Shown in pieces: positions 103-64,000 of a stretch of DNA of 64,000 nt (positions are counted from its first letter, which is position 1; every line of letters starts with the position of its first letter). The notes below the pieces were generated by a model that was not told where the DNA came from, searched no databases, and saw nothing but the letters and a program-made list of their open reading frames with translations. The translations under genes were made by a program, and so were the position numbers. The stretch is taken from NCBI GenBank assembly GCA_003971905.1, contig RSEE01000058.1:1-64000 (forward strand). The letters are read 5' to 3'. Source of the stretch: Moniliella sp. 'wahieum' (lineage: Eukaryota).

Positions 103-196
103 CCACCCACCCTAACCCTCACCCCCTCACCCACCCCACCCTAACCCTCACCCCCCTCACCCACCCCACCCTAACCCTCACCCCCCTCACCCACCA
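103..196. repeat. ~30-bp C-rich tandem repeat (about 3 copies) containing CCCTAA/CCCTCA hexamers
   Basis: Unit caccctaaccctcacccccctcacccaccc is seen about three times. Confidence 0.8.
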
Positions 197-50720: not shown

Positions 50721-51164
<444 letters not shown>

Positions 51165-54100
51165 GGCCCCGGCCCTTTTTCCGTACATGCACCAGCCCGT
51201 GCATCTCTTTGCCTCTCGCGCTTCTATGTCTCGTCCTGTTTCTTTTTCCCCCGCCACATGCCTCTCCCATTGGATCCGCCTGTCTGCTGCGCCCTAGGTG
51301 CCCCGCAGCAACAACTATGACGTGTTTCCTTCCCTCCCTCGCCTCGTCCTCCAGTCTCGTCTGTTTCCGTGCGCAGGAGGAGCGCGCGCCGCCCTGGCCA
51401 TCTACATTTCGTCTTCTCTCTTTCGTACGCGCATTTTGCGGTGCTGCGCACCACGAGGTAGTTCAGTATAGACATGTTTAGCCTACAGTGAAAATGGTAC
51501 GGTGGCCGTCATAGAAAACCCATCGTATTGAACAGAACAGCAGGACGGGCGACTTGGCACCTCTCTTTTCAGTTTGCAGCCGTGCGAACTCAGGAGGGAC
51601 AGGGGGGCGAATAGGAGTGGGAAGCGACGCTTCAAGCTTCAGGCCTCAGGCTTCAAGTTGAAGCTTCAAGCTTGACTTGAAGATTCACTGGACGAGCGTC
51701 GTCGATGAGTCGGCCCGGGCATCCCTGAGATTGATTACGGCCGGTGGAAAATTGAATGTTGATCACAGAGATCACCGGCCGCTCAGTAGATCATCGATCA
51801 CCAGTAAGATGGGCCGCAACACTGCCGCATCAGAGCTGCTGAATCAGCAACGGGCGCCAGTGGCCATATGCACAGCGCCCCCAGACGAGCCACGGGTCAG
51901 GTCGTCGCGTCGCCCTTCGGTGTTATGGGCACATCACGTGACTTGGAGCGCGCACCGTACTAAGAACGCAGATAGAGATACCAGACCGCGTCCTTATTGT
52001 GGACACACCTGAGGAGATCTTCATCACCTTCACTACGCCCATACACCTGCTGGAGTTCAACTAGGGAGTGCTACAGCCCGCAGAAGAGATCGGCTTCAAC
52101 ACGTACGGGAAGGCAGGGTGGTTAGTTACACCAGTCGTGCAATTCAAGCATGCCAAAAGGGAAAGGAGACAGGAAAATAAGAGCAAATCCGTTGATGAAG
52201 CAACCAAAAAAAGGGGTTTGTACAGCTTGTAGAACGAATCTGGCCAGCTCTTATAGTAAGCAAGCGTTGCAGATCAATTGCGGAGAGTGCAGGGGAACTG
52301 TAGTAATAAGTAGCACGAACGTCTCCCACGCCCTGCCTGTTCTCCCTATTACTGCTGTCTCACTTCCCCCTTCCCTTTTCTCCATTCACTCAGTTCACAC
52401 AACTCTTTTTAACACCCAGAAGATTTTTCCGTTATTTCGGTCGTCCCAGCCGCAAGCATGCGTCTCTCGCCGCGCTGCCGGTGCCAAAAAAACCTACCTC
52501 AGAGAGTGAAGTTCTTAGTACCTCGAAAGGTCGAACATTTTTTTTTCTTTTAAAATGAAGACCGCTTGGCTTTGAGCACAGCTGAGTCGGGTTGAATGCT
52601 GACTCTGTTCACCCTTGCCGTATAATAGTCATGTTCCGATTCAACCGTCATATTGAGGATCCCATCTACACGCCAGGAAGGGAAGTGTATGTGCAGCAGA
52701 CGCGTGTAGGTCTATATAGGGAGCGCGTAAGGTCTATATAGTGAGAGGCCTGGGTGAGGCCACCGACAGCGAGCTCGTTTGTTCTCATTTCAGTAACCCT
52801 CAGTGTCACTTATCCACTTAGCTATAGGCAATGGAGATTGTATTGCAGAGCTAAATGAAGAACTAGTAGGCTGTAATGCGTTCCGAAGCCGCATGCACGT
52901 GGAAATTCTTCCGGAACGCGCTCGCCCGATACTACCCTGCGTATGCCGAGCCAGCTGTGTCACTTAATGCCCATGAGCGCATGAGATGTTGTGGACCGCT
53001 GGCGTTCAACCCAACGCTCAGGATTATAACATTTTGGCCAGCAATACCATGCAACGATCTGCGCCCACGCTCTCTCACCGGCCCACAAAAGAGTACTGTT
53101 GCCGTTGTTATTGAGATTATCTTGGTACATCTCCCTTCCTCTTGATACCTCCCCCGTATGGTCTCGTTGTGCTTGCTTAAGGATCGATATCCATTAATAT
53201 CGAAGAACAACTACTTCAGCACAGACAACAGGCACCCCCGTTACGAATGTTAGTGGCAAAAGGGATTTGCTTACACGGCCTAGATTCGTCTCCACTCTCT
53301 CAATACGCAGGGGTGTCGTACACTGTGTCAGCGGTGGGACGTTCACACGGTTTGGTAATCATGGTTGGCACCGTGTTTGTGCTTGGGCTTACGAAGTTCA
53401 CGTGTACGTGAACTTTTAGTGTAAAGGAGCCACGGGAATGTTGATCTTCTCGGTGTATAATAGACAGCTCGATACCTTTGTCGGCCAGCATCAGATTGAC
53501 CGAATCCCCTTCCGTGGTTTTCCCCTTTCACCGTCGCAGAATGCAACACCCCTCCATCCGGACGATGGCAGAGAAACAGGAGATCGGTTTTTTGGTCACA
53601 TCACGGTAAAAAGCATAGTGAAAGGGGCAGGCGGCCGGACAGGGCAACAAGCGACCGCGGATGTAAGAAGTGAATGGATGAAGCTTTGAAGCTTCAAGAA
53701 CAGACAGGGGAGGGTATCACCTCGAATAGGGCGCTGGGTTGGGTAGCACGTCGTTTTGATTTACAAAAGGGTATCTCACCGGCAGAAGCAGGGGCCTGGC
53801 TGTGGGTCGCACCTATCAGTCATACCTTTTTGCACTGCATCTGGGCCTCCGTCGCACCAAAAGGCGGATCGGTATAATGTTCCATGTTCCACGAGAACAG
53901 CTGCCTATGCGCAAAAGCTCCCAGCTGTACGCTGACATGGATAAGGCGCGCAGAGAAAGGGTTTCTACCTCTCGATGTTTATCGACAGTGGGTACGTCTG
54001 AATGGATTCTCGGCTCTCAGTAGTGCTCTCCTCCGCGTTCCATGACACAGAGCATCATTCATCACTCTGTTAATTCCATCCATCATTGGTCAAGCGGTTG

Positions 54101-54984
54101 GGGAATCAAGATGTCTGAATTCCCCAAAAGGGGGAACGTGGGGATCCAAAAGCATAACACGTTTGTGGCAAGTCACGTACATAGGCCAAGGCACCTTATC
54201 GATTATCCTACAAGCCCCTTACACACCTCGCTAACCTCCGAAACCTACACAGTATCCAAATCCCGGACCGGCCCAACCCCTGTCTCTTCCAGATGTGGCA
54301 TGATCATGTGCACAAGGCCATGAGACGGTGCATGAAGCTTGAAGTTTGAAGCTTGAAGCCTGAGGACCTGATGCTTAGACCTCAGGGCATGTGAGTGCAG
54401 TGTTGAGGCGCTGAGGCCTCGCTTCAAAGTTTAACCGAACGTTCAAGCTGTGAACGTTGTGAACGTTGACGTCAAAACCACCACGTTCCTCATTACATGA
54501 TCCGTTGCTCTCCGTCTGTCGAGGTTCTCTAACACCCAGCACTTTGGGTTCCCTCCGGTCCGTCTCATGTTGCTCCTGACAATTGGGCTGCAACCAGACG
54601 GGCAAAAGACTGAGTACTGAGTAGTAATAGTAGGGGCGAAAGTGGAGACTATACGGAATCGCGAGTACGGAGAACTGAGGTAAACCCTGAACAAAGAATC
54701 CAGTTGGAAAAGATAAGGTGTCGGAGGCCATGGAGAGAGAGAAGACTGGAGAGAGAAGCGGATACAGAGTCAAAAAAGGAAGATACAGGTGCGAGGATAT
54801 TGACGCTTGAAGGCAGTAGCCTGGTGTCAGAGCGTCGCAAGGGGGAGGAGACACTATGTCATCTCTGCGCCACAACCATTATGCTCTCCCCATGTGCCAT
54901 CCTCTGGCATTAGTTCTTCCCTGACATCATCATCGCGTTGGCGGTTTCAGACTGTGCTCGCAGGGGTCCTGGCATTCAAAACCT

Positions 54985-55110
54985 CCAAGCTCCAAGCTCC
55001 AAGCTTCAACTCTAAGCTCCAAGCTCTAAGCTCCAAGCTCCAAGGGCCACAAAAGCTCCAAGCTCCAATACGCTCCGAGAGTTCAAGCTCCAATAATAAG
55101 AAGCTCCGAG
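54985..55110. repeat. (AAGCTCC)n heptamer tandem repeat
   Basis: Directly visible. Confidence 0.85.
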
Positions 55111-57827
55111 AACTCTACAAGACCCCGCATCCTCAGCTGCATGGACCGTGGACGGTAACCGGGGTAACCGGTAACGCGTAACGTAACCCGTAAACGTTAA
55201 ATGGTGCAGTGACATGTGTTTTGTGACATGTGACACCTGAAAGTACACCGAGTTTGTGTGCACCAGCGATTGTGGGTTTGAGAATGACCGTTACGCGTTA
55301 CATTATACCGGGTTACTAGTTACTCGGTCACATGTTGCACGCTACACGGATGTTCCGAGTCACTATCGCTTGTGGGCACACCAATGCACCCAGATGCACC
55401 CAGAGGCCGTGGAGGGCACGATTGGGGAGGGGGAAGTGGGAAACACTCTCTATGAGGCTCGATCCATTTAGATCGTAGAGAAAGTGTGCCTATACGTACC
55501 ATAGCGTAGAATAGCATGATGCATGGGTCAGATGAAGCTTGAAGCTTTTGAAGCTTGAAGCTTGAAAATGAGCTTGAAGAGCTTGAAGATGCTTTGCCAC
55601 CGCGTGATAAAGTGTTTCTGCCAAGCATATGTGGATTGATAAGCTCGATCATCGATTATCGAGCTAATCTACCATGCACAACTGCACGATGTATAGGCAG
55701 GAGATCATTGATCGTTGAACGTTGAGACCGTTGATACGTTGATCGACCTATAGGAAGAGAAATATATTGGACCCATGTGGATTCAACATATATTCAACAC
55801 GGCTGAAGTTCAGCCTTGAAAACGTATGTTCAACGTTCACTGTTCACTAGTTACCTAGCTACCGGTTACCGGCACATGCACAACTTGAACAGGTCCTTTT
55901 GACGGAGAAGACATAACGTTCAACGAACGTTCACGATGTTCATGTCATGATGAACAAGTTCATCGATTCATTTTCATCGAATGCATCGATCCTCGCTCAG
56001 ACGCTCAGCCTGAGCGCTGTAACGTCATTAACGTTTAACGTCATTAATCATCGATCTCCTCTTGAATATCGTGGGCTGGCGAGCGAGGCTCTCGGGAATA
56101 TTCGTCGCAGTCACTAGTCACATGTCACATGTCACACCTGGAAAGCTTATTAAAGTTGGTATCGCCGTCGATGGCCCCACACAACGAATGGTTGTTGAAC
56201 ATGTTAACAACGATTCAATCAACTGATCAACGTGGTCAACGTCGAGTCGCACGTTGTCCGATGGATGGCTGAGAGGTTCAGCCGCTAGCCAAGGCATGGT
56301 TACTCCGATTACTCCGGTTACTACTTACTCCGGTTACTAGGTTACCAGTTCCATGTTGAAGCCTACGACCTACCCACACCAGGAGATACTGCGGTTGCAA
56401 GTGCCAAGTAGGTACTCGTCTGTTGCTAGCGTTTACTGGTTACCTTATCATTACCAGCGTGTTGCCGGAGATGGATTATCGAGATAGGCATATCCTGGAA
56501 TCGACGGGCATCGATGATCAATAAATTAATGATCGGTGATCAGCGACTGTCTGAGATATGAACCATCGATGATTGAATATGATCGATGATCTCGCTTGGG
56601 GATGCTCGATGCCAATGCCCCGCCAATGCCCCGCCTGCCCCGTCTTCTCCCGAGCAGGCAGGATGGCAGGGTGCGCCGAGCGCTGTGGGCCGAACGGGTC
56701 CGTGTTACATACGCTGCCCTCCGTTGTACGCTACGCAAGTGGACCGTGGAGTGGCCAGTAGCCGCAGAGCTAGTAGCGCCCAGACACGCAGAGCATGGGT
56801 GGCATGGTGCGTGGTGGCGCACAGCCGCCCATGGCCCAGGCGGACGGGCTATCAGGATATCAGCGCCCGAGGATACCAGTGTGACGTGGGACATGGGACA
56901 TATACATGTGATGTGCCATGTGCTCGGGGATATGTCGCGTTCAAAAGAACAAGAGAACCACCAGTTTCGGCAGACAAACGGCCGCGCTCGGCGCTCCGCC
57001 TGAGCTGAGCACGCGGGCAGTCAGGACAGTGCGCAGGGGCAGGGTGGCCCAGTGCGGTCCAATGTCCAAAGCCTAATCTGCATCCTCGGGCCCTGAGGCC
57101 CTGAGGCCCTGAGCCGAGGCCTGATATACCGGACAGATGAGGCGCAGAAGCTAGTAGCTGTGGCACCGCACCAGCCCACACACCTTGGCCACCGGGGCAC
57201 AAATGGCGGCTGTGTGTGATGTCATTGAACACCCTGCCCAGGCCAGCACACTGTGACCTGGTGCCCCATGCTTCCCTGAGGCTTCCGAAGCTTCAAGCGA
57301 AGCCTCAAGCTCTCAAGCGCAAGACTGCGGTCGATTGGCTGGGCAGCACCGAACGCAACGCCCTGGGGCCGAGGCCCTGAGGAGTAGGTACCCGATAGGC
57401 TGAGTTAGCAGTTAGCAGTTGCTAGTTGCTAGTTATCGGGTATCGGCTACCGCTTGCCGGTCTAACATGTACCAGTTCCTAACTCCCCTGTGCGCTCGAG
57501 GCGCTCTGGGCCTGAGGCCTGAGGAGGCTGGGGCCCTGAGGCCTGGGCCTGAGCGCCTGGGCCCTGGATGCACATGGCCTCAGCCTGAGGCCTCAGCCTG
57601 AGGTCTGGTGCCCGGTGCCCTGAGATCTGATCCCTGGGATCGATGAGATCGATGATCGATGACGCTTCAAGCCCCGAGCCGCCTGAACCGCTGAGGGAGG
57701 GTCCGCCACCCCCCTAAAACCAAACCCAGATGTCAGAAAAAGATACAAAAGGGGCCCTGTTCTCGTCCTGACTCGTGTTCTCCACCGCCACCGTTCTCCT
57801 CTCTCCTCTCTCCCCCTCTCTCGCACC

Positions 57828-58018
57828 ATGAAGTTCTCCTTTGCCGCCATCTTTGCCGTTGTGGCCGCTGTTGCCGTCTCGGCTGCCCCGGCCCCGGCCC
57901 CTGCTCCTGAGGGTGGTACGTGGCTTGCATCCTTATTCTTGGGATTCGTTTTCATTAATCGGTGTTGCTGACATGCTTTTGACCCGCAGACATGTGGTGC
58001 CAGGGCTGCGCCCGCTAA
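57828..58018 (+). CDS. Small secreted prepropeptide, 38 aa: MKFSFAAIFAVVAAVAVSA-APAPAPAP-EGDMWCQGCAR; intron 57916-57989
   Basis: CACCATG start context after a CT-rich leader, a textbook signal peptide and a canonical 74-nt intron (GTACGT...GCTGAC...CAG). The spliced frame closes at TAA 58016-58018. Confidence 0.75.
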
Positions 58019-60007
58019 TTTGGCAAGATCCCAATCTGGGGCTCCCACGCGGTGCATCCGTCGTCTTGGAGTTTGTCTTGTGCCACTTGCTTGATTTCTT
58101 GTTCTTTTCCCACCCTCTCTTCTTGTGTATCTTGTCGCCAAGGTGTATAGGCTTTGGGCCACGTGCAATGTAGCTTGAACGTCTTAACGTCTTGAACGTG
58201 GGAATACTTTAAACCGTTTATACTTCAGGCCGCGAGCACTTGGTGCTGTAGTCATCAGTTTGGATCCCCAAACAAATGATCGAAAGCGTGGATTCTGTAG
58301 CTACTCGTCAGGCACTGAATGCGAGTCATTCTTCGTTGTTCGTTTAAGGCCTGATGGCTTATTCTCCCCTTTTTCGCACCACACCCTCTGCTCTTGCTTC
58401 TTCCCCACGAACTATTGCTGCATTTGGCCAGTAGTCCCGACTTGGTTTCCCTCGCCTTAGGCCCGACTGTGACATTAACGTTCGTGAGGAGGAAGCAAGA
58501 GCAGAGGACATGGTGCGACGCATCAGAACAGGGAAGATGCGACACGCTCGGGACGACGAATTTGGGAATGAGAGCCAGATCAGCCGAACTATGGTAATGG
58601 GGTTAAGCGCATTTTGGGAACGGCGGGTTGTGTACATTACTTGGGCGACATGTGCCACACCATTGAATCTTCAACACCAAAGCAGCCGAACCCATTCAGC
58701 AGAAGCCTCGAGCAAAACGGACCCACCACTTTTCCCCGCCTTACATGTTACACAGTCCTCACACCACAATGGACAAGAGGTCCGGTGGACTGAGAAAGAA
58801 GATCGAAAGACGTGATGAGATAGTGGGCCCAATGGCGAGAAAACGGTGGCAGAATAGATTCCTAGAGGAGGTCATGGGACGAGCCCCGAGGAGGCATCCG
58901 CCCCTACAGTTTAGGGGAGTACAAAGGTCCTGCTGAAGTGCATGTCTGCCGTCTGCCGTGCCCCACTCCTCAGGTCCTAGTTCAAATCCTCCCAGATCCG
59001 GGCGGGTCATCCGTTGCCCATTTCCTCGGACACGTCTTCACCGTCTCTGTTTCACACATTATGACGCATCGAGCAAGTGTTGTAGAAGACCGAATGACGT
59101 CTCACTGGTAGAGATTCTCCTCTACCATGCATGGCACGAACCGTACACCGCACACACCGACAAGGCTGTGTGCCTTTATTGAACCCATGACCACATAGTA
59201 CTGCGCTTCATGCTTCAATCTCCGAGTAGTAGCAGCCTGACACACTAACCGAAGAGACCACACCTCGTTTGCAACCACGAATTCCTCTTCATCTACTGCA
59301 GCTGCGCAGATAGGGGAATGCGAGTTCGTAAAACGACCTGGTCTCATTACGTCCCGCGTGTCATCCTGTGCGCCTCCTTTTCCTTCTCGTTTTTCATAAT
59401 AAAGGAGGTTGAATGATGCCGCAGTGGGACAAACAACATGTGATGCGATGTAAGAAAGCTATGCGCTCAGGTTAATAGTCCAGTCGCCTTTGGATTGTAC
59501 AGGCGGCCAAAAAGCTGTTCCCCCACTTCAAGGACAGGCAACTGTGTCTCTTCTTAGTTGCCTCTTCGCTATCATTTGCCCTTGCCTTCGAGCTTCCGTC
59601 TCTCCACGCGCATAACTCTCTAGCGTCACGTCGCGTGGATCTGCTTCTAGGCACGTCGGAACAAAGTCCCTGGCATCCTTTCGGATTTAATTTGGGCCTC
59701 TCGCGTTCCTGATACTCCTGTTTTAATACTGTGGAAGCTTGGGACACTCACGATCCAAGGCCAGATGGAAGAAGGCCGGTAGTTACACTGAAAGAGCGAT
59801 GCCGTCACTCGCAAGGGATGCCAAATGCAGGTACGTGCTATCGTAGTTTGACCCGAGGAACGAACTAGAGACGCACCAGAGGCTACGTGCAGGTCAAGCA
59901 AATGGCAAGTTGGCCGAGCGCGCCCCAACCCAAGCCACCGAGAGAGCAGCGCGCCGGACAGATGGCCCAAAGAAAGGGGACAAGTCATGCCAAAACCGTA
60001 GATCCAT

Positions 60008-60859
60008 TTAGGCTGCCTCCTCGGCCGCCGGAGCCTCTGGCGCTGGGGCGGCAGCTGCAGGTGCGGCGGCCTCGGCGGTAGGTTCAGCTTCAGCCTCCTG
60101 CATGTCAGACGTCCAAAGCGTCAGGTTGTCCCGGAGCAACTGCATGATGAGTGTCGAGTCCTTGTAGCTCTCTTCGCTGAGCGTGTCGAGCTCGGCAATG
60201 GCGTCGTCGAACGCCTGCTTGGCAAGGTGGCACGCGCGGTCAGGAGAGTTGAGGATTTCATAGTAGAACACGGAGAAGTTGAGTGCCAAACCGAGGCGAA
60301 TGGGATGGGTCGAAGCGAGCTCAGCAGCAGCCACGTCAGAGGCTGCCTTGTACGCCTCGAGCGATTTGTCAGCACTGTCCTTGCGCGTCTCGCCCGTGGC
60401 AAACTCGGCGAGGTAGCGGTGGTAGTCGCCCTTCATCTTGTAGTAGAACACTTTGCTCTCGCCCGACGCGGCCGAGGGAATAAGGTGCTTGTCCAGTACG
60501 CTGAGAATGTCCTCACATACCTTGGCCAGTTCGGCCTCGATCTTCTCGCGGTACGCCTTGATGATGGCGACCTGGGCCGTGTTGCCCTTGCTCTCCTCCT
60601 TCTGCTCGATGGAGGAGACAATGCGCCACGAAGCACGGCGAGCACCAATGACATTCTTGTAGGCGACCGAGAGCAGGTTGCGCTCCTCGACAGTCAGCTC
60701 TTGGTCGGCCGACGCGACGGCCTTCATGCTCTCGACCATCTCTGGGGAGGGGTCAGGAGGGGGGGCAAGGCAGAGGGGCGCAGGGGGGCACGTACCATCG
60801 TAGCGCTCGGCCTGCTCAGCGAGCTTGGCGAGGTAGACGTTGTCGGCGTGGGTGCTCAT
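60008..60859 (-). CDS. BMH1: 14-3-3 protein; intron 60742-60795
   Basis: [44 protein letters not shown] and [22 protein letters not shown]. Confidence 0.98.
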
Positions 60860-61453
60860 GGGGGGGGGCTGGGCTGGATGGCAGGGGCGGGGGGGTGGTG
60901 GTGTGGTCGGGGGCTGCTCGGGGTGGCTGGGCTGGGACGGGATGGCGGACCGGAGGGGTTAGTGAGTACGCCCCGGGCCCAGCAGCCCGCAGCCGCAGCC
61001 CTCGCGCGCGCGGCGGCGCGACTGCCCCTGTGCCTCCCGCGGGCCGGAGCGAGGGGCGCGCCGGCAGCCCCCGCGCTGGGCGGCACTGGGCGGCACTGGG
61101 CTGCACTGGGTGCACTGCTGCACTGGGCCTGCACGGGCTGCGCGGCGCGCCACTTGGGCTGCCTGCTTGCCGCTGGGCCAGCCAGAGCCACGCCGTGCCT
61201 GTCTTGGCCTGCCTTGGCGCACCCGGCCACGAGGGGGTGGTGTGACAGCTACACATCACATGTCGCGTGCAACTGGCAGCAGGCACGTGACGCGCCCATG
61301 TCCCCGTGCAGCTTACATCAGCAGGGCACTTGTCCGTGGGAGCAGCCCAGGCACAAATTTGCTGTGGGGAGCGCACGTCCACATCGGCCCTCGACTCTGA
61401 CCGACAATCGCCGCGCGCCATCCGCCTGCCTGCACGCCCTGCCTCTGCGCACC

Positions 61454-63140
61454 ATGAGGCTGCTCTCGCATTGCCTCCCTCGTCATCGGCGCTGCTGCCG
61501 CCGCCACCACCGCCACCGCCCTTTCCATCCACTCCTCGCCCCGCCCCGCCACCCCCTCCGCCTCCGCCTCCGCCTCCTCCGCCGACCACCCCACCCCGTC
61601 GTCGTTTGGCATGGGCTCGGCGACAGTGCCCAGTCCGAGGGTATGACTGGCTTTGCCGATGCCCTGCGGGAGGCCTACCCCGGCATCTTTGTCCATCTCG
61701 TCGCTCTCGCCGACACGGCGGCGGCGGACCAGCGGGCGACGCTGTTTGGTCTGGTCAACGACCAGGTGGCGCAGGTGTGCGAGCAGCTGGCATCCATCCC
61801 CGAGCTGCAGGACGGATTCGATGCGATTGGTTTCTCGCAAGGCGGGCATTCATGCGTGCGTATGTGGAGCGCTGCAATGCGCCGCCTGTCCGCAACCTTA
61901 TCACGTTTGGCAGTCAGCACATGGGCATTGCCGGTCTGCCCGCCTGTGCGCCGCGCGACTTGCTGTGCCGCGCAGCGTCGGGCATGCTCCGCAACGGCGT
62001 CAACACCGACTATGCCCAGTCCCACGTCGTCACTGCGCAGTACTACCGCAACCCGCGTAGCCCTTCCGAGTTTGAGGGCTACCTGGCCCACAACCACTTT
62101 TTGCTCGACATCAACAACGAGCTCGAGGTCAACGAGTCGTACAAGCGCCGTCTCTCCAGCCTGTCCAACTTCATCATGGTCGTCTTTTCCGAGGAGCAAA
62201 CTGTGGTGCCCAAAGAGAGCGGCTGGTTCGCCGCCTACCCCCTGGCCGAGGCGGACGAACCCGAGGATCTTCCCCCCGTTCCGTTGCGGGAGAGTTCGAT
62301 CTACAAGGACGACCGGCTTGGCCTCCAATCGCTTGATCGCCGCGGAGCGCTCGTCTTCGAGACGTGCGAGGGCCCGCACATGTCTATTGATCCGGCGTGC
62401 CAAGATAAGATTCTAGGGCGCTGGCTGGGTACGCCCGCGTCGCAATTTGCCCAGTGGGAGGGGCGGCCAACGGCGAGTGTTCTGAGTCGTCTTGGGTGGC
62501 CTGAGACTGGTTCTTGGCGCTGGCCACAGTGCACTTTCATGAGCAACCCAGATGGCTCTCGTCGTCTACGCATCGAGCCGGCTGCGTCCGCTCATGTAGC
62601 CCACTCGAAGGAGCATGCCCCCTTCCCCCCCATCGACATTGACTATACCACGGCCGAGCTCGTTGCTGTGGTCATCCTTGTTGTCCTGATCTCGTTTCTG
62701 TTCTGGAAAGCTGTGGTTGTGATTCTGATGGTTATCCTTACGGCCATTCTCTTCCCTGGGTTTGTGGTCGGTGCTGTTCTTGCCTTGCCGCTGGTCATGG
62801 TCGCGTTCCTGGTGGGGTGCGTGATTTACCTCCCGTTTGCGCTGATTGCTTCCCTGGTCCGCCGAAGGACGCAGCCCCAAGGCATTCTGCTCCCCTACCA
62901 TCCCGCATGGGAACCAAGGCGACCGACTACGTACGGTGCCGTCGGCCCAGCCGTCTTTGTCCAGGGCGTTCGTCCACCTCAGCCCGTCCCGCATCCTCAC
63001 CCAACTCCTGTTCCGTCCCATCCCCCCCCCCCCTAGCTCGTGCCCCTCAACCATCTTCGTCTACGGTTGCACCCGATGTGGAAGCCGCCCCTCCCAGCTA
63101 CGACGAGGTGGTCTGTTTCACCTCTTCTCCGCGCAAGTGA
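61454..63140 (+). CDS. Palmitoyl-protein thioesterase (PPT1 family) with a C-terminal hydrophobic segment and Pro-rich/PPSY tail; frameshifted
   Basis: PVVVWHGLGDS, GFDAIGFSQGG (nucleophile elbow), RAYVERCNAPPVRNLITFGSQHMG, AQYYRNP, VVPKESGWF and GPHM. Confidence 0.88.
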
Positions 63141-64000
63141 ACCCCGTGACGTATGTCGGTCAGGGGGGGTGCTTGTCCAGCCGTCATCTCAGGGTTGGTT
63201 GGTCAAAGTGGTCCCCCCCTGTTCCTCTAGTTTGTTTGTTCGATGTGTTGTTCAAACCCCCCACTCCACCCCCCGTTCCAGCTATATTCACTTTGTCGAC
63301 ACGTTACATGGATTTTGTCCTCGCGATCCCATTCCCCAATGTCGTGACATGTGGCACTCCTCCACTGGCTTTCCTTACCGCTGAGGGCTGAGGACTGAGG
63401 CTGGTGACCACGGTCCTCGCCCCGAACCCATTCCCCGTTCGTGGTCTACGCTCCAGACGATACAGGCGAGAGCTTCTCTGCCGTTCTGGGCGGTGGCGCG
63501 ATTTGTTGTAGGATCAATTTCGTTTTTTCCCATCTAATCCCGCTCGCGGCGCGGCATGACCTCAGGCCAGAGCTCCTCCCTCGTAGTTTGGGGTCAGATC
63601 AGTTCCCATGGCTGCACGCTCGATGACGCGGACGCAGAATCGTTCTTGTACCCAAAGCAGAAGGCCGGTCGTCCACGTTGCGGCAGCATGGGGGGCAATG
63701 GTACAGAGGTAGTGTATGGACCGTAGAAGGTTGTAAGGTGTAAGCGGATAGCGAAACGCACGCTTCAGCCTCAAGCAGTTGAGCTTAGCTGCCACGCCGG
63801 GCCGTCGCCGCGGGAACGACTCGCCTATTGGTAGCCGGTACCGTTTCCTGCGGGTGTGTGTGCAATGGCACGGTAGACGAGGGGGAGCTGGTCTGGGGTG
63901 GGTCGGGAGCAGGTGGCTCGAGCTGGCCCATGCTGCGCCAAAGGCGGGGAACAGCCATTGCAAGGGGCACGGCGGGGCGATCTGCAACACTTGTACAGAC

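Follow-up and report, generated by a model that had tools for sequence, protein, structure and literature searches.

The window, the initial 64,000 nt of contig C58, contains near its end a real gene for a tiny secreted precursor (Table 1). The gene starts with an ATG at 57828 in the context GCACC-ATG, and has two short exons separated by an intron whose splicing is predicted from its splice signals. After splicing, the precursor would have 38 residues, in which an N-terminal signal peptide, whose cleavage after V-S-A is predicted by the (-3,-1) rule, is followed by an X-Pro spacer and a C-terminal predicted mature peptide of ~11 residues. The initial annotation had proposed such a hidden two-exon gene; its description of the signal peptide, X-Pro spacer, phase-1 intron and stop was confirmed, and its 38-residue spliced product was reproduced exactly from the sequence. 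The start context, CT-rich leader and canonical intron that it pointed out recur in all five copies of the gene (see below), which have ACC-ATG, a leader of 78-91% pyrimidine, a GTAYGT donor and a GCTGAC-type branch. None of the 38 codons ends in A, a property shared by 97 of 20,000 38-codon stretches drawn at random from the window. A scanner for short genes combining a signal peptide with X-Pro dipeptides, run over the 64,000 bases, gave the peptide gene as its one match, and two matches in a looser version. Among the alternative splicing patterns (three donors by eight acceptors), the donor at 57913 would give a product one residue shorter, and was rejected for its poor consensus and the lack of a counterpart on C170.

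Table 1. Coordinates of the peptide gene, its flanks and the linked transporter gene on contig C58.
Feature	Position	Strand	Details
Stretch without recognisable gene, histone H3 to peptide gene	51180..57743	.	6.6 kb; probable long regulatory region
TATA-like element	57744..57751	+	TACAAAAG; putative function
Pyrimidine-rich leader, ACC-ATG start context	57768..57827	+	common to 5/5 copies
Exon 1	57828-57915	+	88 nt
Signal peptide, 19 residues (exon 1)	57828..57884	+	predicted cut after V-S-A
Four X-Pro dipeptides (exon 1)	57885..57908	+	predicted removable spacer
First two residues of predicted mature peptide and base 1 of split Asp codon	57909..57915	+	
Intron	57916-57989	+	74 nt, phase 1 (predicted); GTACGT donor, GCTGAC branch at 57967, CAG acceptor
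Exon 2	57990-58018	+	29 nt including TAA; MWCQGCAR and stop; CxxC core CQGC[AG]R
14-3-3 (-), palmitoyl-protein-thioesterase-like (+) and small membrane-protein (+) genes	59950..64000		part of putatively inverted segment
Linked OPT gene	~64,445-67,700 (just past window)	-	Pfam PF03169 and ORFs

A search of the fungal assembly (69.5 Mb, 223 contigs) revealed five copies of the peptide gene, namely those on C58, on its allelic contig C60 and on C170, in addition to an older paralogous pair on C7 and C55. The initial annotation, which had missed this family, had suggested a search for paralogues and orthologues; the C7/C55 pair answers the former, whereas no relative was found outside the genome. 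When exon 1 and 11 leader codons served as the query, a protein search gave two candidates, neither at E<=10; an Atlas search with the unspliced 47-residue frame gave no usable match, and a degenerate exon-2 pattern had no match among metagenome contigs, all of these being weak tests for an exon of nine residues. Matches on C26, C84, C13 and C107 were rejected as chance. A match at C5:357,737 was rejected as a family member; the secreted, Cys-containing protein there is longer, though still small, its signal peptide is similar, and its gene has a TATA box.

The genes tested form two near-identical pairs, and the pairs are ~81-86% alike, which points to two subgenomes with two alleles each. The copy on C170 is the homeologue of that in the window, with a histone H3 gene 5.1 kb upstream that is 87% identical to the window histone H3, and with further genes in collinear order; C21, the allelic contig of C170, stops 2.2 kb short of the peptide gene. 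The histone H3 gene in the window (50757-51167) has two one-base frameshifts, likely assembly errors, and encodes an unusual 11-residue stretch that is found in the C170 copy as well.

Superposition of the C58 and C170 copies showed that 74 of the 88 nucleotides in exon 1 are identical, with nine synonymous and two non-synonymous changes among 29 codons; within the signal peptide there are synonymous changes, and the amino acids are unchanged. Exon 2 of both C60 and C170 is identical to that of C58 at all 29 nucleotides. The intron of C170 shares 52% identity with that of C58, compared to 44% (maximum 48%) in shuffles; the intron measures 75 nt in C60, 103 nt in C170 and 91 nt in C55. The distal 300-nt flanks are at the level of shuffled sequence, with 51% identity upstream and 48% downstream. 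Altogether, the synonymous bias, the intact exon 2 and the flanks at shuffle level are indicative of purifying selection on the peptide coding sequence.

The X-Pro spacer that was originally claimed keeps its register in C58, C170 and C55. It has four units in C58 and C170 and two in C55, and the single change of C170 against C58, from Ala to Val, falls on an X position; the C60 copy contains one Pro-Pro, within a C run. The second residue of the predicted mature peptide is Gly in C58 and Lys in C170. The coding parts of C7 and C55 each contain indels, at different places, and exon 2 of C55 reads cleanly into acidic residues, CQGCGR, two further residues and a stop three codons later than that of C58. 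Trp-Cys is present in three of the four readable copies, and the Trp is absent from the C55 paralogue. The two Cys, Gln, Gly and Arg, with Asp/Glu before them, have persisted across the old duplication. The WCxGC pattern proposed at first has to be replaced by the conserved core CQGC[AG]R.

Each copy has a TATA-like element upstream of the start codon, TACAAAAG at -84 in C58, -84 in C60 and -90 in C170, and CATAAAAG at -76 in C7 and -78 in C55. The ~6 kb upstream that had been described as free of recognisable genes measures 6.6 kb, and we likewise recognised none. It gave no coding-like alignment with the 5.1-kb spacer of C170, except for one 46-nt repeat block. The palindromic hexamers AAGCTT and ATCGAT occur in it at 2.1 and 2.0 per kb, compared to 0.2 and 0.3 per kb in positions 1-51200 of the window. 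Long intergenic stretches, including 51200-57827, contain arrays of AAGCTT, ATCGAT, ACATGT and ACGCGT at 7-base spacing. These arrays are enriched upstream of all peptide genes; nevertheless, they are not specific to them, since arrays are found at unrelated loci too. The peptide genes are subtelomeric, that of C170 lying 4.3 kb from the contig end. At the opposite end of the window (105-195), CCCTAACC-type repeats match the end of C170 (57,143-57,320), which terminates in telomere-like repeats. On the 3' side of the peptide gene, a short element at 58375-58593 matches C123 and C72 (71-80%), and ~300 nt of this region are absent from the C60 allele.

A gene for an oligopeptide transporter (OPT) is found on the contig of every peptide copy. 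On C7 and C55, it lies downstream of the peptide gene in the same orientation, with its N-terminal motif 2.5 and 2.6 kb, respectively, from the peptide core. On C58 and C60 it ends 6.4 kb downstream of the peptide gene, with three genes between, and on C170 it is 45 kb away. We found at least 60 OPT loci on 48 contigs (101 matches; 71 of 232 candidates scored). The regions within 7 kb of these 60 make up 1.3% of the assembly, a chance figure that would rise with more loci. The OPT expansion is very large, with tandem copies on the short contigs C72, C105, C171 and C185.

The OPTs linked to the peptide genes are distinct from the others. With the C58 OPT as the query, a DNA search retrieved only those on C60, C170, C21, C55 and C7 (eight candidates). 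In clean segments, the six linked OPTs fall into two groups with ~60% amino-acid identity between them, compared to at most 38% against the remaining loci of the 60. In a tree of one 200-residue region, which included the 37 of 60 genome loci that were long enough and 32 outside proteins, the six form one clade with a support of 0.999. Among the 60 stretches examined, some with short flanks, the acidic-VFAF N-terminal motif is present only in the peptide-linked OPTs. This link between the peptide family and one OPT clade had also escaped the initial annotation. The same motif characterizes a group of basidiomycete OPTs from Exobasidium, Ustilago, Wallemia, Malassezia and others, within which the linked OPTs occupy a long branch whose exact placement is weakly supported; they are ~40% identical to the outside members, whereas the latter share 50-70% among themselves. 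A second acidic-VFAF OPT of Ustilago (opt4 in one record) and the one of Malassezia group together in the tree. The OPT relatives that were named, including ten clusters reached via a metagenome OPT, comprised no Cryptococcus protein, and none of the full-length OPT proteins retrieved was identified as CNAG_03013. At 79 metagenome OPT loci, 42 of them with the N-terminal motif and most with short flanks, no convincing small secreted gene was found nearby. A recurring "CxGC-stop" near metagenome OPTs was rejected as a homologue, as all seven cases checked are antisense inside the OPT coding region.

Gene order gives some insight into the history of the pair. On C63/C52, which represent the other subgenome, the two genes that we take from their translations to be a 14-3-3 and a thioesterase-like gene abut a ribosomal-protein gene that on C58 lies past the OPT gene. 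When the C58 segment from 14-3-3 to OPT is inverted in silico, the order of C63/C52 is restored, and the OPT gene comes to lie head-to-tail after the peptide gene, as in C7/C55. By parsimony, we infer that one inversion from 14-3-3 to OPT separated a head-to-tail peptide-OPT pair on C58. On C170 the OPT gene is followed by a C2H2 gene that resembles the one after the C7 OPT. Contigs C41 and C42 carry the homeologues of the C7 flanks, and at both syntenic breakpoints (~39 kb examined per contig) the peptide, OPT and C2H2 zinc-finger genes are all missing. Six further blocks that share the C2H2 gene (C27, C5, C123, C72, C61 and C3; ~10 kb each) contain neither a peptide gene nor an OPT gene, and the search for a closer homeologue of the C55 OPT gave none. 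The gene orders on C58, C7/C55, C170 and C41/C42 suggest that the peptide and OPT genes were probably ancestrally adjacent, duplicated as a unit, missing as a unit once and loosened twice. On C41/C42, a single contiguous loss or gain could account for the joint absence. As all copies stem from one ancestral pair, their adjacency counts as one observation and not three; moreover, adjacency is not required, since it has been loosened on C58/C60 and C170. The assembly contains ~19 matches to the 14-3-3 gene (60008-60912); a related C2H2 zinc-finger gene accompanies several of them, which suggests repeated block duplication.

The peptide family and its tie to one OPT clade point to a system of the Qsp1/Opt1 kind known from Cryptococcus, a lead that we had noted before the neighbouring OPT was seen. 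By analogy, we propose, with a probability of about 0.5, that the locus encodes a Qsp1-Opt1-like module in which the peptide is secreted, trimmed and re-imported by the linked OPT. The 38-residue precursor would enter the secretory pathway and lose its signal peptide, after which a dipeptidyl aminopeptidase (DPP-IV/STE13) or a surface protease would strip the X-Pro spacer stepwise, until trimming stops at Glu (C58 and C170) or at Ala-Ser (C55). The product, of 11 residues or, in the older paralogue, of 13, would have a CQGC[AG]R end preceded by acidic residues. It would accumulate outside with rising cell density, and the linked OPT would take it back in to act inside the cell; the CxxC may form a small disulfide ring that sets the activity of the peptide. 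The proximity of the OPT genes, the clade of linked OPTs, the joint absence, the gene order explained by one inversion, a DPP-IV-family gene (one PF00930 match, on C73) and the signs of purifying selection support this proposal. By contrast, the two genes have been separated twice (to 6.4 kb, with three intervening genes, and to 45 kb on C170), OPTs are very numerous here, their count being a lower bound, and no convincing small secreted gene stands beside the 79 metagenome OPT loci. In addition, Qsp1, as given in PMC5959062, has no Cys and no sequence likeness to the peptide, and the Pro-Pro of C60 would stall DPP-IV, unless it is an assembly error.

Three other explanations have to be weighed against this module. 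The gene might be an artefact, either a piece that a frameshift has cut from a larger secreted protein or a chance pattern in non-coding DNA. One-base indels are indeed common in the assembly, as seen in the doubly frameshifted histone H3 of the window and in all six OPT copies examined, which are broken, so that the worry of the initial annotation over an indel hiding a larger protein was fair; the indels in the coding parts of C7 and C55 add to it. However, C58, C60 and C170 agree on exon 2 and its stop, and a fourth contig has the same core. The DNA 3' of the stop is not conserved among the copies, and the unspliced read-through differs among C58, C60 and C170. A shared stop followed by unshared DNA makes a longer protein masked by an indel unlikely, and, with the changes in exon 1 biased to synonymous ones, an artefact of either sort is highly improbable.

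The two remaining explanations accept the gene and assign another role to the peptide. A secreted acidic CxxC peptide might bind Cu/Zn or carry thiol reducing power, the complex being recovered by the linked OPT. OPT-family members transport glutathione and metal chelates, the linkage to an OPT fits such a scavenger equally well, and what survived the old duplication is precisely the two Cys with Gln, Gly and Arg after Asp/Glu. Nevertheless, a peptide with just two Cys lacks the many clustered Cys of metallothioneins, no adjoining metal-transporter gene was recognised in the flank translations of the peptide copies, and no fungal precedent is apparent from literature titles and abstract openings; we regard the scavenger as unlikely. 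A somewhat stronger, though still minor, possibility is that the peptide acts at a surface, as a ligand of the alpha-pheromone/KEP type, as an antimicrobial or on a host, and that the OPT is a chance neighbour inherited with it, consistent with the twofold loss of adjacency. Spacers of XP/XA removed by STE13 do occur in basidiomycete precursors (PMC9769878), and an alpha-pheromone-like precursor with two Cys is described from Trichosporon oleaginosus (PMC6339444). Yet the peptide genes have neither a dibasic site nor repeats, the Trp is not conserved, and the linked OPTs are a clade of their own. A search for a Ste2-type receptor gave no match in the genome, although with a weak control, as the control genomes gave none either. 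Moreover, the net charge of the peptide is neutral to acidic, in which most antimicrobial peptides differ from it. Two weak STE3 matches are found on C104 and C111, away from the peptide genes.

Compared to known systems, the peptide gene resembles the precursors of alpha-pheromones (Fusarium oxysporum) and STE13-type KEPs in having a signal peptide, a short peptide preceded by XP/XA dipeptides, two Cys and, in three of the four readable copies, Trp-Cys, as these are described in PMC7289986, PMC6339444 and PMC9769878; both the dipeptides and a DPP-IV-family gene are present here. However, there is no KEX2 site, and C58, C60 and C170 contain a single core. The likeness to alpha-pheromones that had been suggested is not supported, as the Trp is not conserved (C55), the CxxC differs from the Cys2-Cys9 of the Fusarium pheromone in PMC7289986, and KR/RR sites and repeats are lacking. 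That pheromone is reported as a density signal, which disulfide formation switches off (PMC7289986). The KEP survey, as described in PMC6339444, required at least three repeats, and could therefore not have listed this gene. The peptide is not a CaaX pheromone either, in agreement with the initial annotation, as it has a signal peptide and ends in C-A-R.

The closest parallel to the proposed secreted and re-imported peptide is Qsp1 of Cryptococcus, described in PMC7537855 as an 11-residue peptide that leaves the cell as a pro-peptide, depends on Opt1 and is matured by Pqp1, and as the first peptide quorum-sensing system described in a eukaryote; it is reported to be active in the cytosol (PMC7537855, PMC6571750). 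OPT1 is given as CNAG_03013 (bioRxiv 2020.08.07.241190), and CNAG_03012 (QSP1/CQS1), which the reference list of PMC10914677 calls a "quorum sensing-like molecule", appears as its neighbour on chromosome 3 in PMC8187385 and PMC3618354. Both systems, as far as these sources describe Qsp1, have a tiny secreted pro-peptide with a product of ~11 residues (predicted here) and a peptide gene that adjoins an OPT gene, which holds here for C7/C55 and, before the putative inversion, for C58/C60. In contrast, the mature Qsp1 given in PMC5959062 has, by eye, no motif in common with CQGC[AG]R, and Qsp1 is reported to be cut by the serine protease Pqp1, whereas a pure X-Pro spacer of the DPP-IV type is predicted here. 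The predicted layout is thus Qsp1/Opt1-like, yet the peptide is no Qsp1 homologue by sequence. In the literature searched, no counterpart of Qsp1 appeared in smut-related fungi. In addition, there are two paralogous pairs of peptide and OPT genes here, different from Cryptococcus. It is tempting, if doubtful as a whole, to see in them a second fungal peptide-import signalling system beyond Cryptococcus, with a DPP-trimmed CxxC peptide, a dedicated fast-evolving OPT, two duplicated channels and the redox/metal state of the ring gating the signal. Were the OPT to prove an orthologue of Cryptococcus Opt1, an old origin of the peptide-OPT module within Basidiomycota would follow, and other species would be expected to have comparable tiny genes, as yet unannotated, beside this OPT group. 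Such genes fall under the usual ORF cut-offs and are missed by a repeat-based KEP screen; searching beside the acidic-VFAF OPT group may be a route to more of them. Altogether, this conserved spliced gene of 38 codons, linked to a transporter clade of its own, offers a second case after Qsp1 that can be tested directly.
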